Assembly (NCBI GenBank): GCA_000004695.1
Contig: CM000152.2
Span: 288,001-352,000 of the forward strand
Source: Dictyostelium discoideum
Taxonomy: Eukaryota
Direction: 5' to 3'
DNA length: 64,000 bases
Position 1 is the stretch's first letter. The number at the start of each line of letters is the position of its first letter. The translations under genes were made by a program, and so were the position numbers. This document shows, piece after piece, positions 26,159-46,836 of the stretch. The notes below the pieces were generated by a model that saw nothing but the letters and a program-made list of their open reading frames with translations, had not been told where the DNA came from and ran no database searches.

Positions 26159-27215
26159 TAATTTTTAAAATTTATTATAATTATTTTAAATAATAATAAA
26201 TTTAATTTAATTAAATTTATTATTAAATTTAAATAGAAAAGAAGATATTAATGCAGTTAGATATCAAAATGTTTTAAAAATGATTAGATCAAGAGCAACA
26301 AAATTAATGGATAAAAAACATTGTGTACATATTGCATCAATTAATAATTTCCCAACAGCAGCAGGATTAGCATCAAGTGCAAGTGGATATTGTTGTTTAG
26401 TATTTACATTGGCACAAATGTATGGTGTCGATGGTGATATTAGTGGTATTGCAAGATTGGGATCAGGTAGTGCATGCAGATCAATGTATGGTGGATTTGT
26501 TAAATGGGAGATGGGCACCAAAGACGATGGTTCCGACTCGATTGCAGTTCAAGTGCAACCAGAATCACACTGGCCAGACATGAACATCATCGTATTGGTT
26601 GTCAACGATAAGAAGAAGGAGACATCAAGCACTGATGGCATGCAAAAGAGTGCTGCCACCTCGGTGATGATGAAGGAGCGTTGTGCAGTCACTGTACCAA
26701 ATAGAATGAGAGATATCGAGGAGGCAATCAACAAGAAGGATTTCCAAACCTTTGGAGACATCACCATGAAAGATTCCGACGACTTCCACGAAGTTTGCGC
26801 CACCACCACACCACCAATCTACTATCTCAACGACACCTCTCGTTACATCATGAATTTAATTCACCGTTATAATAAACTCAGTGGTTCCATTAAATGTGCC
26901 TACACATTTGATGCTGGCCCCAACGCTTGTATCTACTTACCTGCTGAAAGCACCACTGAGGTACTCTCACTCTTTATGAAACATTTCCCTGGTGATGATA
27001 TGCAAACCTATTATCGTGGTCCAAAGGAAAACATTCCATCAATTGAAAATTTCGTTCCATCTGAAAAATTAGCTTCCCTCTACACTCCAGATACTACCTT
27101 TGTTAATTCTCTCAAATATATCCTTCATACTAAAGTTGGTCCAGGTCCACAAATCTTATCAGAATCTGAATCTTTAATTGATAATACAACTGGTTTACCA
27201 AAACAATTAAATTAA
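25759..27215 (+). CDS. mvd: Diphosphomevalonate (mevalonate pyrophosphate) decarboxylase, about 391 aa, two exons of 25759..about 25955 and about 26237..27215.
   Basis: The N-terminus [39 protein letters not shown] is the MVD signature. Exon 2 has the GHMP-kinase-family motifs ([18 protein letters not shown]). A GTAAGT donor follows ..LYLNGK. An ATAG acceptor at about 26236 restores the frame. Confidence 0.9.
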
Positions 27216-33234: not shown

Positions 33235-37752
<4,518 letters not shown>

Positions 37753-39347: not shown

Positions 39348-41843
39348 TTATTTTTTTAATTTAATTAATTTTTCAGTTTGATGAAGTAATTTAAAATTTA
39401 ATTTAATTAATAAAAGTAATTGAGAGAAACCATTTTGGTTGAAAAATATTTTTGGAGAATTTGAAAATGTATAACGAGAAGCTTCATCTAAAATTTTATC
39501 GGTATAATAGATTGGAATTAAAGGTTTACCTCTATTTTCAGCCAATGAAATTTCATCACGAATTAAAGGTGTAAATGCAACCTCTGATATAATTACCACA
39601 ACTACCCAACTTGAGATAACTTTTTTCTCTCTTGGTACAATTGTGATACCATTCTCTTTAAAGAAATCGAATAATGGTTTAAAAGTTTTTTCACTATTTG
39701 GATCGAATGATATGAAAATTGATTCAGAACCAGAGATTGAATGAGGTATAGTATCAACATCATGTTTATTATCACTATCATCTTCATCCTCATTATCTCC
39801 ATCACCTGATTTTGAACTTTTTGAATCTTTAGTATTTAACATATTATAAACACCTTCTAATAAAACACTGAAAGAGTCATTATAGATTTCATATGATGAG
39901 AAATCGACCAATTGTGAACGGAAAATACAAGATTCCAAAGTTGGGTCGGTGATTTTAGTTTTTTCAGCCCAAATTGAAACCATTGGTAATTTTGAAAGAA
40001 AAGTTAACAATAGATTCACTTGATAGCTGAGGGTTAGGGATTTAGAAGAGACAAAGAATATATAACCATAGCAATTACGATTTTCATTTGATTCTGAACT
40101 AATTAAACAAGCTGTTATTAAATTGTCTTCTAATGAATACTTCAACCTATTGGCCAAGTCTACATATTCACTAGTGTAAACTATACCAATATCATACAAC
40201 TTATTTTGTTTCTTTATTTCAAATGCGACATCCTTATCCAATAAATCAAATGGTCTTTCATCTTGATAGTTTCTTTGTTTATGATTTGCACCTGCTTTAA
40301 TCGCTATCTCAAATTCCTTTATTGATAACTTTTTTGCGAAAAAATGTAAACAATTATCACCTGTTATCTTATTAGTGAAATTAATATCTGATAGTAGATT
40401 AGAAGCAACCGATTTTAAAGGCCATTTTAAGATTTCTGCATTGTAAAAGTATGGTGGTAAATTTTCTTTGTTTAAAGTTTTAAGATTTGGTGCTAAAATT
40501 TCTTCAACATTGAAAAATGTGACATCACGATAACCCAATCGTTTTTTGGCTATAATATGTAGCAAACTATCTCCATTACTATTCCTATAGGTAACTGCTG
40601 ATTTGGTATCACAATGATACCACATGTTTTTATAATGCTCCATTTTACCAGTCCACAATAATTGAGCCAATAACTCTTGTGGATTATCATAAAGTAATGC
40701 ACTATGATAAGAACCTGTTGAAACTTGACTTGGAAAACCAATGATCTCCTTACAATTTGAAATTGGTACAGTATCAGCATAAATCTCCTCCTCTGTCGCA
40801 GATTGACCATATCTATTCCAACCAAATGCAAAAACTTGATTATTTTGACTTCTCGCCAAAACATGTTTACCACAATCTGATGAACAATCAAAATCAATAA
40901 AACCACCACTATTACCATTTGCTGCTGCTGTCGTTGTTGTTGTGGTGGTGGTGGTGGTTGTAGTTGTAGCTTCAACTAAACATTTTGGAACTGATGAAGA
41001 ATATTCGTCAACAAATGTACCCCAACACCAAAAACTACCATTTTCACCAACTGCGCATGTGTAAGTACCACCACATTGAATGGTGGCGAATTTTTGAAAT
41101 GATTTAACTTTAATTGGGATTGGTAGTGATTTGTTGAATGATGAGCCATCGCCTAACTGATACTCTTCGTTCATACCCCATGTGTAGAGCTCGCCTTTTA
41201 GATCGATCGCACCCATGTGTCTATCGCCAATGGCGAGGGTTTTGATACCAATATTATCAAAGAAAACACAACGAAATGGTGTGTATTGGTCAGTTTGGTT
41301 ATTAATCCCCAACTGACCGTACTTGTTGTATCCCCATGTATACAACTTACGCTGAACGGTATCTTTACTAATGGCAGCAGACGACGCACCACCCGCATAC
41401 ACACTTTCAATGTTACTCAAGCCCGGCACGAGTTTGGGCTGATAGATAGCCAGGGTCTTCCCTTGACCCAAACGGCCCAGTGATGAACTGCCCCATGTCA
41501 AAACTTGCGATGAGGAAGTCAACGCTATTGAATGATCATTCCCGCATTGTAAATCTCTAATTGAGTGATTCATCTCCACTAGTGTTGGCTCTGATCTATC
41601 TTCAGTATCGCCTGTACCCAATTTACCAAAACTACCATTACCAAACATATATAAATTGCCTGTTCCAGTAATGAATCCTGTATGTTGCACACCACATGAC
41701 ACCTTTTTAACATTATAATAATTTGGTAATAAAGTTGGTATACCTGTATAATTATCTTGATTATAAATAAACTCTTTATCAATTTCAATACCAATTTGAC
41801 CATGAGAATTCTTACCAAATACAATCAATGCCCCAAATGCCAT
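39348..41843 (-). CDS. Multidomain protein of 831 aa with N-terminal RCC1 repeats (about six blades), ankyrin repeats and two C-terminal TIR-like domains. Single exon.
   Basis: Residues 1 to about 290 show the RCC1 pattern repeatedly (..G.N..GQLG.., VSCG..HT.., WG.N..G.LG). The ankyrin signature appears in GDSLLHIIAKK and GDNCLHFFAKK. The C-terminus has TIR-like blocks. One set is ESIFISFD (box 1), SWVVVVIISEVAFTPLIRDEISL (box 2/alphaC) and GKPLIPIYYTD (box 3). A second set lies upstream (DIGIVYTSEYVDLANRLKYSLEDN, YIFFVSSKSLTLSYQVNLLLTFL, PMVSIWAEKTKITD). Confidence 0.7.
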   Translation of the reverse strand: MAFGALIVFGKNSHGQIGIEIDKEFIYNQDNYTGIPTLLPNYYNVKKVSCGVQHTGFITGTGNLYMFGNGSFGKLGTGDTEDRSEPTLVEMNHSIRDLQCGNDHSIALTSSSQVLTWGSSSLGRLGQGKTLAIYQPKLVPGLSNIESVYAGGASSAAISKDTVQRKLYTWGYNKYGQLGINNQTDQYTPFRCVFFDNIGIKTLAIGDRHMGAIDLKGELYTWGMNEEYQLGDGSSFNKSLPIPIKVKSFQKFATIQCGGTYTCAVGENGSFWCWGTFVDEYSSSVPKCLVEATTTTTTTTTTTTTAAANGNSGGFIDFDCSSDCGKHVLARSQNNQVFAFGWNRYGQSATEEEIYADTVPISNCKEIIGFPSQVSTGSYHSALLYDNPQELLAQLLWTGKMEHYKNMWYHCDTKSAVTYRNSNGDSLLHIIAKKRLGYRDVTFFNVEEILAPNLKTLNKENLPPYFYNAEILKWPLKSVASNLLSDINFTNKITGDNCLHFFAKKLSIKEFEIAIKAGANHKQRNYQDERPFDLLDKDVAFEIKKQNKLYDIGIVYTSEYVDLANRLKYSLEDNLITACLISSESNENRNCYGYIFFVSSKSLTLSYQVNLLLTFLSKLPMVSIWAEKTKITDPTLESCIFRSQLVDFSSYEIYNDSFSVLLEGVYNMLNTKDSKSSKSGDGDNEDEDDSDNKHDVDTIPHSISGSESIFISFDPNSEKTFKPLFDFFKENGITIVPREKKVISSWVVVVIISEVAFTPLIRDEISLAENRGKPLIPIYYTDKILDEASRYTFSNSPKIFFNQNGFSQLLLLIKLNFKLLHQTEKLIKLKK

Positions 41844-42249: not shown

Positions 42250-43290
42250 ATGAGCGGGAAAATCACAGATTTCTTTGAGAAAAAGACAACAACAACTATA
42301 GATGAAGCAGAAAATAAAGATAATGATAAAGAATTAACTTCTACCACTACCACCACCACAACAACCTCCACCACCTCAAAAAAAAAAGTAGCTGCAGCAC
42401 CAAAAAAAAAAGCAGCTGTAGCATCTAAAAAAAGAAAACATGAATCGTCAGATGAAGAAACAGATAAAGAAGAACAACAAAACGATGATGATGACGATGG
42501 TGAAGAAAAAGTCGAAAATAATAATAATAATAAAAAATTAAAAAATGAAGAGAAATCTGAAGAAATTAATTCGACAATAACAGATAACAATTATTATGAT
42601 GATATTGAAAATTATTTTACAGATAAACAATGGAAAGAAGCATTGAGTGGTGAATTTGGTAAAGCATATTTTAAGAAAATGATAACACAATTAAATAAAC
42701 GTTATAGTTCAAAAGAGAAACCAATTTATCCACCAAAGAATGAGATTTTCTCTGCATTTAATTACGCACATTTGGAGGATGTCAAGGTGGTTATCATTGG
42801 TCAAGATCCGTACCATGGCAAGGGTCAAGCTCATGGCTTGAGTTTCTCGGTCAAGAAGGGGGTATCACCACCACCATCATTGATTAATATCTACAAAGAG
42901 TTGGAGACTGATATCGAGGGCTTTAAAAGACCTTTGAAAAACGGCTTCTTAGAGCCATGGGCTAGACAGGGTGTGTTCTTACTTAACGCTGTCTTGACAG
43001 TGGAAGAGGCAACACCAAATTCTCACAAAGATTTCGGTTGGGCTGATTTCACTGATGCCGTATTAAAAATACTAAGTAAACAAGATCAACCAATCGTTTT
43101 CATTTTGTGGGGTGGCTTTGCTCAAAAGAAGGAAAAACTATTCACAAATAAAAATCATTTGGTTTTAAAGAGTGGTCATCCTTCACCATTATCAATTAAA
43201 CATTTCATTGGTTGTAAACATTTCTCAAAATCAAATGAATTTTTAAAATCAAAAGGTATTGAAGAAATTGATTGGAAGATTACAGAATAA
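42250..43290 (+). CDS. ung: Uracil-DNA glycosylase, UDG family 1, 346 aa, single exon. It has a Lys/Glu/Thr-rich N-terminal extension of about 160 residues.
   Basis: The catalytic water-activating loop is present (VVIIGQDPYHGKGQAHGLSFSV). So is the rest of the conserved UNG core (PPS..NI..EL, the leucine loop HPSPLS). The N-terminus begins MSGKITDFFEKK. Confidence 0.9.
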   Translation: MSGKITDFFEKKTTTTIDEAENKDNDKELTSTTTTTTTTSTTSKKKVAAAPKKKAAVASKKRKHESSDEETDKEEQQNDDDDDGEEKVENNNNNKKLKNEEKSEEINSTITDNNYYDDIENYFTDKQWKEALSGEFGKAYFKKMITQLNKRYSSKEKPIYPPKNEIFSAFNYAHLEDVKVVIIGQDPYHGKGQAHGLSFSVKKGVSPPPSLINIYKELETDIEGFKRPLKNGFLEPWARQGVFLLNAVLTVEEATPNSHKDFGWADFTDAVLKILSKQDQPIVFILWGGFAQKKEKLFTNKNHLVLKSGHPSPLSIKHFIGCKHFSKSNEFLKSKGIEEIDWKITE

Positions 43291-44447: not shown

Positions 44448-46836
44448 CTCTCTCCTTATTATTAAATAATAATTATTATTAGCATTTGATTTAAATGGTA
44501 AAAAACCTACCAAAAGTAATGTTGTAAGATTATTATTAAATAGAACTAATTCTGGAAGCAATTTATTATCAAAAAGAAGAACTTCAGAGACAGGAGATGA
44601 TGATAGTAATTCTAGTGTTGGTTTATTGAATAACAGTACTGGTAGTATAGGTAAAATGAATACACCAGAATCATCACCCAAATCATCATATATTCTAAGT
44701 AGTAGTATTGGTAGTGGTGGTAGTGGTGGTGGAGGTGGTAGTAGTGGTAGTCTTCAAAATTTAGATAGTGCTAGTAATAATAGTAGTGGCCCAAGGAGTA
44801 GAAGTGGTAGTCTTGGTAAAAATAATAGTAGCCAACAAAATAATAATAATTTAATATTAGACCCAAATTTTAATAATATTGATAAATCATTATGGACTGT
44901 TAGATCATTAAAAGAACATTCAAATCTTGTTGATATTATGGAAAGAATTAAACCAGCAAGTAGAGCCATTTCATTTGGTCAAATTTATGCAAGTGAAGAA
45001 ACTCAATTTGAATTTGATCCAGTTATTGGTCGTGATAATATTTTACAATTAATTTTACAACATTTACAATTTGAAGGTTTAATGGACTCTAGAAAAATTT
45101 TAGAAGAGGAAGCTAAAATTCAATATCCAGAATATACATTCAATGAATCAAGATTAGTCACCTTATTACGTGCTGTCATAAAAGATTCTGATAAAGTTTT
45201 CGATCTAACTCTAAATGATAGAGATAAAGATTCTCAACAAAAATTAGAAGAACATTTAGCATTCCTTGGTTTATTCAAAGATGAATCTCAAACTAATATG
45301 GTTGAAGATGTAAATATCTATGATGAACCTGAAAATTCAAATATTATATATGTAGATGAAAAAGATAATGATAAACCTTCAAAAGATTCACCAACAACAG
45401 CAACAACAACAACGACAGCAACAACAATTGCACCAAGTACAAGTATTAATAATTTATCAAGTTTATCAGTTAGTATAAGTTCAAATAATATAAATAATAA
45501 TAATAATAATAATAATAATATAAATAATTTAAATAGTACACAATTAATTAGTAATACACAACAACAACAAGCAACACCAAATACACCACCACAAGGTTTA
45601 AAATCAACACAATCAATTACAGGATCAACTGGTACATTAGGACCACAAGTTAAAGCAGCATCATTAAATAAATTAGTAATTTTATTAACACCAGAGAATA
45701 ATCATGATTTAGAGTATACAAAGACATTTTTATTAATGTATCAATCATTTACAACACCAGAGATATTATTACAGAAATTGATTCAACGTTATCATGTACC
45801 ACAAAAGGCAGGTCAATCAGTTGCAGAATGGAGACAACGTTCAACTCATATTCAACTTCGTGTACTAAATGTATTGAAAACTTGGATCAAAGATTATTTC
45901 TCTGATTTCTCTGAAAAGTTAATACTTGCCATTAAATCATTATTGGAATCAATGAGACAAACTGGTAATATGTCTTATGCAAAGGTGATTTCCGATGCCT
46001 TGAATTCAGGTTTAAAGAAAAGTGGTCGTAATAACACGGTTTTCACAGTTTCAGCACCCGAGCCTAAAGTACCTAAAAACATTTGGTCTCACAATTTAGA
46101 CATTTTCTCTGTGGATGAAGAGGAGATCTCTAGACAATTGACCTTGATGGACTTTGAAATCTTTTCAAATATTAAATCAACTGAACTTTTAAATCAGTGT
46201 TGGAATAAACCAAAACTACGTCACCGTTCTCCAAATGTTTTAGAATTAATTGGTCGTTTCAATGAAATCTCTCAATGGACTGCCACTTCGATTCTCTCAT
46301 GGCCCAAGGTTAAAGACAGAGCTAGAATCATGGGTAAATTCATAAAGATCGCTGAATACTGTATGAAGCATTTAAATAATTTCAATACTTCAATGGCAAT
46401 TCTTTCCGGTTTAAACGCTTCCTCAGTGCACAGATTAAAATTCACAAAAGAGGAATTACCAAGACACACTCAACAAGTTTACACAGAGTTACAATTTCAT
46501 CTAAGTTCAGCCCAAGCTTACAAAGAGTATCGTGCTTTATTAGCCAAGGCTAATCCACCATGTTTACCTTATCTTGGTGTTTATTTAACAGATTTAACAT
46601 TCTTTGAAGAAGGTAATCCCGATTTCATTCAAGGTTTTATCAATTTCGGTAAAAGAAAGTTAATCTATGGTTCAATCTCAAATGTTCAAAGTTTTCAAAA
46701 TACAAAATATAATTTACAACCTGTTTATCAAATTGCAAAATTATTAAAAGGTTTTAAACTTTTAGAAGAAAATGAACTTTATACAAGATCAATGTCTTTT
46801 GAACCAAGAAATAAAGAAAGAAGTGAAATTTTATAA
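44007..46836 (+). CDS. Ras guanine-nucleotide exchange factor with a LisH motif, a RasGEF N-terminal (REM) region and a CDC25-homology RasGEF domain. About 820 aa, three exons of 44007..44024, about 44247..44349 and about 44483..46836.
   Basis: An 18-nt first exon (ATGTCAAATCCAGTCTGT, MSNPVC) is followed by a GTATGT donor. Exon 2 starts after a TATAG acceptor (ISNSTNGSSNS..SPISKAS). Exon 3 contains ORF 44626..46836. The LisH motif is ILQLILQHLQFEGLMDSRKILEEEA. The CDC25 domain runs from LTLMDFEIFSNIK to GNPDFI and includes the conserved ..N.....AI...L..S..RL..T...L...... block. Confidence 0.8.

Follow-up and report, generated by a model that had tools for sequence, protein, structure and literature searches.

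Dictyostelium discoideum, the main amoeba model, encodes five TIR proteins (Culbertson et al., bioRxiv May 2026, PMC13142454). One of them, TirC, is reported in that preprint as a potent NADase, an enzyme that cleaves nicotinamide adenine dinucleotide (NAD+). Another, TirE (DDB_G0278125), is described there as a protein with multiple RCC1 repeats and two diverged tandem TIRs, which were seen by expanded hidden Markov models and missed by Pfam. The passages of the preprint that deal with TirE report no assay or function and mention only a weak predicted dimerisation of the TirE TIRs with TirB, TirC and TirD; the words 'ankyrin' and 'BB loop' are absent from its main text. The same gene had been listed earlier among those for RCC1 proteins, with an orthologue in each of the five dictyostelid genomes, had been grouped by co-expression with RanA, RanB and RanBP1 in a cluster of six genes, and had been proposed as a candidate for the guanine nucleotide exchange factor of Ran (RanGEF) (Forbes et al. 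2021, PMC8923023). Here we analyse the uninterrupted open reading frame (ORF) at positions 39348..41843 (-) of a 64,000-nucleotide stretch of D. discoideum AX4 chromosome 3 (the window), which is, judging by locus and architecture, almost certainly tirE.

Described TIR systems include NADases (SARM1; plant RPP1, ROQ1 and RUN1; AbTIR; TIR-STING; Cat1) and adaptors (MyD88, MAL/TIRAP, Hydra TRR-2), the latter assembling via a functional BB loop. The NADase activity of plant TIRs and SARM1 needs the BB loop, a BE interface with the DE surface of the neighbouring molecule, and the catalytic Glu (10.1101/2021.10.02.462850). Compared with the NADases, TirE is missing the BB loop, alphaB, the Trp of the WxxxE motif and the basic residue that follows betaA; it carries two TIRs in one chain and has a propeller in place of the NB-ARC/LRR, ARM-SAM or STING input. 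The functional BB loop of the adaptors is likewise absent from TirE, which also has neither a death domain nor a receptor context. The best overall explanation, to which we assign a probability of roughly 60%, is that tirE belongs to an old family in which an RCC1-like propeller is followed by ankyrin repeats (ANK) and two TIRs, and that its product is likelier to act as a scaffold or adaptor, or to have a non-canonical activity, than to deplete NAD+ in the manner of SARM1.

The ORF runs from ATG to TAA over 831 codons plus TAA within a very AT-rich window (GC about 0.16-0.36). We regard it as the complete coding sequence of an intron-less, single-exon gene, because its best relative, the 813-aa orthologue of D. 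purpureum (63% identical in the C-terminal half), can be aligned with it from about residue 6 to the last residues. The flanking ORFs match D. discoideum AX4 proteins exactly (XP_642149.1, DDB_G0278611, DDB_G0278113 and part of diphosphomevalonate decarboxylase). Hence the ORF is taken as tirE, since the locus numbering, the architecture and the Pfam behaviour all fit: the flanking genes and the preprint description lead to the same locus and to an RCC1 plus two-TIR architecture that is unique in D. discoideum, and the failure of Pfam to see the TirE TIRs, as described in the preprint, is also the behaviour of the ORF here and therefore supports the identity. The TirE of the preprint and this ORF thus have organism, chromosome neighbourhood and architecture in common, with no known difference. 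Against the identification it must be said that it is drawn from locus and architecture, without a direct sequence comparison. The exact protein sequence was not found in a collection of 15 billion proteins, although that collection lists six of its neighbours under D. discoideum AX4. The available part of the supplement text of PMC13142454 contains no DDB_G0278125, 'TirE' or RCC1-domain entry, neighbouring DDB_G numbers were not found in the literature, and a motif search did not find the Ras-like GTPase expected for DDB_G0278119.

Both C-terminal modules are, by profile comparison and in a predicted structure, TIR domains. TIR1 (residues 549-676, 39816..40199; all features of the gene lie on the minus strand of the window) is diverged, has no catalytic Glu and is predicted to be non-catalytic, as indicated by hhalign, a profile of the RCC1 clade, the TIR_2 matches of its relatives and the AlphaFold model. 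TIR2 (residues 704-831, 39351..39734) is also diverged, carries a Glu at the canonical catalytic position and ends in a long C-terminal alphaE helix, as seen from profiles and conservation. Between them lies an acidic, disordered and poorly conserved linker (residues 677-703, 39735..39815), for which the predicted local distance difference test score (pLDDT) falls below 50 at model residues 132-155. A preliminary description of the window had read the ORF as an RCC1 propeller, ankyrin repeats and two tandem TIR-like domains. The ORF and the strings that it quoted (KLYDIGIVY at residue 548, YIFFVSS at 594, PMVSIW at 620, SGSESIFISF at 704, VVVVIISEV at 747 and GKPLIPIYY at 772) are found where it placed them, and the architecture itself is borne out by the Pfam match of the propeller to the RCC1-like domain (RLD), by ankyrin homologues, and by TIR profiles, relatives and the model, with the qualification that the ankyrin part is degenerate.

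The TIR assignment is carried chiefly by relatives. An exhaustive phmmer search with residues 387-831 against 1.84 billion representatives returned 53 matches, comprising seven full-length dictyostelid orthologues, then proteins of the same layout from Soliformovum, Balamuthia, Pelomyxa, Diphylleia and further protist transcripts, and then oomycete ankyrin-TIR-TIR proteins. Six of the orthologues belong to D. purpureum, Polysphondylium violaceum, Tieghemostelium lacteum, Heterostelium album, Acytostelium subglobosum and Cavenderia fasciculata; the seventh (P0005) is a EukProt gene model. The C-terminal half matches a Soliformovum protein (P0008) at E=2e-20 in one stretch over both modules, and Pfam recognises in this protein RCC1, ANK and two TIR_2 stretches with 71 bits, the cutoff being 28. 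Another relative (P0009) shows the same domains with 56 bits, two Pelomyxa proteins reach 60 and 57 bits for TIR_2 with two stretches each, and the relatives from Balamuthia and Diphylleia behave alike. The oomycete ANK-TIR-TIR proteins score 80-180 bits and pass the PF01582 threshold too.

Profiles lead to the same result. Those iterated from either module retrieve both modules in the query (about residues 551-668 and 708-814) and in nearly every relative. When profiles built from dictyostelid sequences only were compared with bona fide TIRs by hhalign, TIR1 gave P=3e-5 over 114 columns and TIR2 gave P=1e-4. The family profile matches about 80 PDB sequences, nearly all of them TIRs (best 4e-8); a family profile restricted to TIR2 matches Cat1, RPP1, MyD88, AbTIR and SARM1; and a TIR1 profile built from RCC1-linked proteins only ranks TIRs first in the PDB, the best at 1.3e-3. 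An AlphaFold model of the TIR pair, built with a 28-sequence alignment, has a pLDDT of 87.3 and consists of two beta/alpha domains joined by the disordered acidic linker, the 10-residue blocks of the TIR modules scoring about 77-98. TIR1 has the topology betaA-alphaA-betaB-betaC-alphaC-betaD-alphaD-betaE-alphaE in this model, and the fold is that of a TIR, namely a parallel beta-sheet with flanking helices and with solved TIRs as nearest structural neighbours.

A number of results weigh against the TIR assignment or limit it. In the whole protein Pfam finds no match of significance within the C-terminal 445 residues. TIR2 on its own matches TIR_2 (PF13676) with 16.2 bits and E=0.015, below the cutoff of 28, and TIR1 on its own matches nothing relevant. 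Orthologue-only profiles have no TIR matches in the PDB, and narrow profiles of the first (M1) and second (M2) module show no significant similarity to each other, the modules being linked only through the wider family; because of this, the assignment depends on intermediates and on the predicted structure. The predicted template modelling score of the pair is 0.50, so a fixed TIR1-TIR2 arrangement gets no support from the model. Several other searches were negative. All dictyostelid orthologues stay below the Pfam TIR threshold (best 22.1 bits), a phmmer search of the PDB with the C-terminus gave no matches, and the best PDB match of the M1 orthologue-only profile was a spurious diphthamide synthase. 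With TIR1, TIR2 and the whole protein as queries, the PADLOC models of TIRs from bacterial defence systems (Thoeris ThsB, CBASS and Pycsar effectors) gave no match at E<=10. A single-sequence AlphaFold run on residues 387-831 reached a pLDDT of 32. A word-indexed homologue search with the same residues found nothing, missing even the 63%-identical D. purpureum orthologue, probably as low-complexity words swamped the candidates. The profile search that the preliminary description had proposed thus has a divided outcome: the query itself stays below the Pfam threshold, but its relatives of the same layout and the family profiles identify the modules as TIRs. The alternative that it had named, a non-TIR flavodoxin-like fold with no TIR match, did not emerge; the family and TIR2 profiles match TIRs, nearly all matched structures are TIRs, and together with the further TIR evidence this makes such a fold very unlikely.

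Among the dictyostelid orthologues, identity to the query is 50-77% in TIR2, 47-61% in TIR1, 40-56% in the propeller, 23-54% in the ankyrin region and 25-47% in the inter-TIR linker. Since conservation is highest in the TIRs, the pair appears to be functional and probably forms the protein's core; it is on the TIRs and not on the propeller that constraint in TirE is strongest. The most conserved block of TIR1 (residues 620-648, 39900..39986, PMVSIWAEKTKITDPTLESCIFRSQLVDF) covers betaD-alphaD-betaE on the 'DE surface' side. In 15 RCC1-linked proteins drawn from Amoebozoa and other protists, six residues of its pattern, PMVSIWAEK..DP.LESC..RSQLVDF, never change: I, W, E, R, Q and V.

The two TIRs differ at the position of the catalytic Glu. 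In TIR2, E764 (codon 39552..39554) within RDEISLAEN corresponds to the profile column 'q' in rDq and stands in alignments opposite the catalytic Glu of the TIR NADases RPP1 (WCLDE) and Cat1 (WCWDE) and of the oomycete TIR1 (WCxKE, WCmKE). This column holds Glu in 7/7 dictyostelid TIR2 sequences aligned and mostly Gln in other lineages; across the tandem-TIR family as a whole it varies between E, Q, L, H, R and T. The invariance in seven dictyostelids against Q elsewhere suggests that E764 matters and could mean real catalysis, which is a point against a purely scaffolding role. In TIR1 the equivalent residue, or the one next to it, is N610 (codon 40014..40016), which hhalign puts opposite the Glu of WCxKE; MAFFT puts L611 there. 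Neither column is ever Glu in RCC1-linked proteins, whereas the TIR1 of the ANK-type proteins has E in 14/15, together with the full SxWCxKE motif. A conserved catalytic Glu, as anticipated in the preliminary description, is therefore present in TIR2 and missing from TIR1. On this alignment TirE keeps one catalytic hallmark in one of its two TIRs.

The preliminary description had pointed to a different Glu, that of the 'SEV' string, as the one kept in the alphaC region. This residue, E754 (codon 39582..39584), lies between betaC and alphaC in the model, and its column reads EENRSKSTDT... across the family. Being in a non-conserved column ahead of alphaC, it was ruled out as the catalytic residue, and E764 takes its place. 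A further Glu, E769 (codon 39537..39539), belongs to the 'AE(N/D)' pair of TIR2. This Ala-Glu pair, part of 'LAEN' and located five residues past E764, is invariant in 28/28 tandem-TIR proteins from amoebae to oomycetes. No known TIR motif accounts for this, and the pair may point to a shifted active site or to an interface.

Other hallmarks are missing from both TIRs. The betaB-betaC connection of TIR1 (SSESNENRNCYG, 40065..40100) is shortened to 12-14 residues in dictyostelids, compared with 17-29 elsewhere and 27 in canonical members. That of TIR2 (PREKKVISSW, 39606..39635) measures 10 residues in all dictyostelids versus about 17-36 in almost all other lineages. In both cases the BB loop and alphaB are gone, as loop lengths indicate and, for TIR1, also the AlphaFold model; alphaB is not present in the model, and neither TIR has a box 2 or BB loop. 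The alignment of the BB loop that the preliminary description had suggested is hence without an object, as the true box 2 is deleted in both modules. As for the box motifs quoted there, the TIR modules they delimited stand, but the strings labelled box 2 (YIFFVSS..., SWVVVVII...) correspond to betaC and alphaC, and those labelled box 3 (PMVSIW, GKPLIPIYY) to betaD. The Trp of WxxxE is absent from both TIRs, with TIR2 having L760 at -4 (PLIRDE), and the betaA motifs of both (SIFISFD, DIGIVYT) are without a basic residue. TirE therefore has no aromatic residue four positions before the Glu and no BB loop to form the BE interface and gate the NAD+ site. Since both TIRs are devoid of the BB loop, alphaB and the WxxxE Trp, NAD+ cleavage is far from assured, and a SARM1-like NADase activity of TirE appears doubtful.

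On the evidence of domain content, tirE represents the dictyostelids in an old family of protist proteins whose layout extends across Amoebozoa and is also found in Diphylleia. Proteins from Soliformovum irregulare, Balamuthia mandrillaris (KAL6079294.1), Pelomyxa schiedti (KAH3732658.1 and KAH3756238.1) and Diphylleia rotans have the same domain order as TirE and share with it the TIR1 block (IW.EK...ES..R.QLVDF), the 'AEN' of TIR2 and a TIR1 without Glu. Unlike TirE, they have a near full-length betaB-betaC connection (17-36 residues) and clear ankyrin repeats and pass the Pfam TIR_2 threshold, and the catalytic position of their TIR2 is L, H, R or Q, whereas TirE has Glu. The oomycete ANK-TIR-TIR proteins (Lagenidium giganteum DAZ99117.1, Aphanomyces euteiches) combine ankyrin repeats with the same tandem-TIR unit as TirE, including the invariant 'AE(N/D)' in TIR2, but have no propeller, a canonical TIR1 (SxWCxKE, full BB loop) and Gln in TIR2. 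With Trp and Glu in TIR1 and Q in TIR2, their likely catalytic domain is TIR1, the reverse of TirE. The Glu is thus placed in TIR1 in oomycetes, in TIR2 in dictyostelids and in neither TIR in the other RCC1-linked amoebozoan proteins.

The N-terminal propeller (residues 4-386, 40686..41834) is identified by Pfam and PDB sequence matches as an RLD of the UVR8/HERC/RPGR type. Pfam gives 221 bits for WD40_RLD (cutoff 150), 192 bits for RCC1 over 6 repeats and 107 bits for RCC1_2, as is characteristic of a multi-blade RLD. Its nearest PDB sequences, and closest solved sequence relatives, are the RCC1-like domains of UVR8 (2e-58), HERC1, HERC2 and RPGR (down to 5e-38), none of which is joined to TIR domains. 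RCC1 and SRM1 are weaker, at about 1e-24 to 1e-25, with the Ran-GEF RCC1 itself at 2.5e-25.

The propeller is followed by a degenerate ankyrin-repeat linker (residues 387-547, 40203..40685; e.g. NGDSLLHIIAKK and TGDNCLHFFAKK...AGANHKQRN), the least conserved domain among the dictyostelid orthologues. It does not reach the Pfam ankyrin threshold, as Ank_2 scores 13.7 bits against a cutoff of 27.3 (E=0.095). Homology to ankyrin proteins is nevertheless direct, since in the whole-library phmmer search the linker matches huge ankyrin-repeat proteins (P0015 at E=9e-13, P0019 at E=1e-9), and the identity of P0015, P0019 and P0042 as ankyrin-repeat proteins was checked with Pfam. These matches, together with the significant ANK repeats that relatives carry at the position of the TirE linker, identify it at the sequence level as degenerate ankyrin repeats.

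Taken together, TirE would be a cytosolic multi-domain signalling protein in which the UVR8/HERC-type propeller serves as an input that binds a ligand or a partner, the ankyrin repeats provide a spacer and the two TIRs form an output module working through TIR-TIR assembly. TIR1 may be a non-catalytic partner that offers its conserved betaD-alphaD-betaE surface, and TIR2 would be the only candidate enzyme. Scaffolding, adaptor function or a non-canonical activity appears likelier than NAD+ depletion for two reasons: SARM1, plant and bacterial TIRs build and gate their NAD+ pocket with elements that TirE does not have, and the RCC1-linked proteins of ancestral type carry Glu in neither TIR.

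The preliminary description favoured a different role, that of a sensor or effector of cell-autonomous immunity, in which TIR2, perhaps with TIR1 as an asymmetric partner, would cleave NAD+ or produce a signal once the propeller detects a bacterial cue. We find this unlikely, although it has real points in its favour. E764 stands opposite the catalytic Glu of RPP1 and Cat1, and all seven dictyostelid TIR2s have it where related lineages carry Q; no other domain is as conserved as TIR2; the DE-surface block of TIR1 is highly conserved, and in plant TIRs that surface is one half of the composite NAD+ site (10.1101/2021.10.02.462850); and TIR enzymology exists in D. discoideum in the form of TirC (PMC13142454). 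However, both TIRs have lost the BB loop and alphaB (connections of 12-14 residues in TIR1 and 10 in TIR2 versus about 27), the WxxxE Trp has become L760, the basic residue of betaA is absent, and no PADLOC defence TIR model matches. Outside the dictyostelids, both TIRs of the RCC1-type relatives are without Glu, which makes it probable that the architecture was not catalytic in its ancestral function. Furthermore, the dimerisation with TirB, TirC and TirD predicted in the preprint is only weak (PMC13142454), and the one hint from expression data in the literature ties the gene to the Ran pathway and not to immunity (PMC8923023).

That hint leads to a second alternative, which we consider rather improbable: TirE could be mainly a Ran-pathway regulator with a RanGEF-like or Ran-binding propeller, its TIR pair being an interaction or localisation module with no immune role. 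It would account for the co-expression with RanA, RanB and RanBP1 and for the RanGEF proposal (PMC8923023). The propeller has a full RCC1-like domain, and a bona fide RanGEF has not yet been identified in Dictyostelium, where none of the 24 RCC1-repeat proteins of D. discoideum is clearly a RanGEF. Co-expression is indirect evidence, though; the propeller is far nearer to UVR8, HERC1/2 and RPGR than to RCC1/SRM1, and TIRs that are more conserved than the propeller would be odd for an accessory module.

Somewhat more improbable still is the bolder proposal that the family is an ancient class of protist receptors that dates back at least to the Amoebozoa-CRuMs split. Its RCC1-like propeller would control a fused and intrinsically asymmetric TIR pair, and in dictyostelids this pair would be a minimal enzyme without BB loops but with an intramolecular composite site. 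In such an enzyme TIR1, as a pseudo-TIR, would give the DE surface and TIR2 would give Glu764, derived from an ancestral Gln, and possibly Glu769, and the substrate or product would be non-canonical. If true, this would be a new way to build a TIR catalytic centre without oligomerisation. Finally, the idea that the C-terminal modules have another three-layer alpha/beta fold merely resembling TIR (a CheY-like receiver, a nucleoside 2-deoxyribosyltransferase (NDT) or a CMP-hydrolase) is highly improbable, for although the query falls under the Pfam TIR thresholds, the orthologue-only M2 profile has NDT as its best PDB match (non-significant, E=0.098) and Foldseek template modelling scores of BcmB and NDT are similar to that of the SARM1 TIR, the family profiles match TIRs almost exclusively, full-length homologues that share the layout exceed the cutoffs of TIR_2 and PF01582, and an independent study has made the same TIR call in its description of TirE (PMC13142454).

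The gene and its domain content are already known, having been published in 2026 as TirE, so that no new category is opened here, and the preliminary description's implied discovery of the architecture had been anticipated under the name tirE (PMC13142454). What the present analysis adds is the ankyrin linker, the asymmetry in Glu, on which the TirE passages of the preprint are silent as regards TIR1, the deletions of the BB loops, the invariant AE motif and the spread of the layout over Amoebozoa into Diphylleia. To our knowledge, the BB loop is needed for assembly or catalysis in every TIR studied; because dictyostelids have deleted it, TirE offers a natural test of TIR signalling or catalysis without a BB loop, for which E764, E769 and the DE block of TIR1 are clear mutation targets.

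Several features of the gene and of its orthologues are of lesser weight. The propeller contains a low-complexity insertion of poly-Thr, Ala and Asn (residues 293-314, 40902..40967, TTTTTTTTTTTTTAAANGNSGG), which reads 13 Thr and then AAANGNSGG. Because 0/7 orthologues have aligned residues there, we take it as an insertion specific to D. discoideum within a structured domain; relative to the UVR8, HERC1, HERC2 and RPGR domains it is found in the TirE propeller only. The C. fasciculata orthologue (P0007, XP_004359795.1) retains, at about residues 640-736, TIR1 and the first TIR2 strand (EASIFLSFNPSK), continues with unrelated sequence and ends early; either TIR2 has truly been lost or the sequence reflects an error in the gene model or a frameshift error. 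The H. album orthologue (P0004, XP_020437451.1) is extended at its N-terminus (residues 1-420) by about 400 residues that include bona fide ankyrin repeats and precede the propeller, part of which seems to be missing; it may be a fused or mis-joined gene model.

Immediately upstream of tirE, and divergent from it across a 406-bp AT-rich gap, lies the gene of the uracil-DNA glycosylase UNG (42250-43290 (+), exact match XP_642149.1), which has about 150 low-complexity residues ahead of the catalytic domain. A RasGEF (736-aa ORF with RasGEF_N and RasGEF) follows 1.3 kb past UNG at 44626-46836 (+). The adjacent ORFs at 33235-35412 and 35665-37752 (-) are the C-terminal and N-terminal halves of a homologue of TTI1 (TELO2-interacting protein 1); presumably they form a single gene that a short intron or a frame change of about 250 bp interrupts. 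At 26280-27215 (+) we find a 311-residue main exon of diphosphomevalonate decarboxylase; as the protein has 391 aa in XP_642143.1, this gene must have at least one intron upstream.

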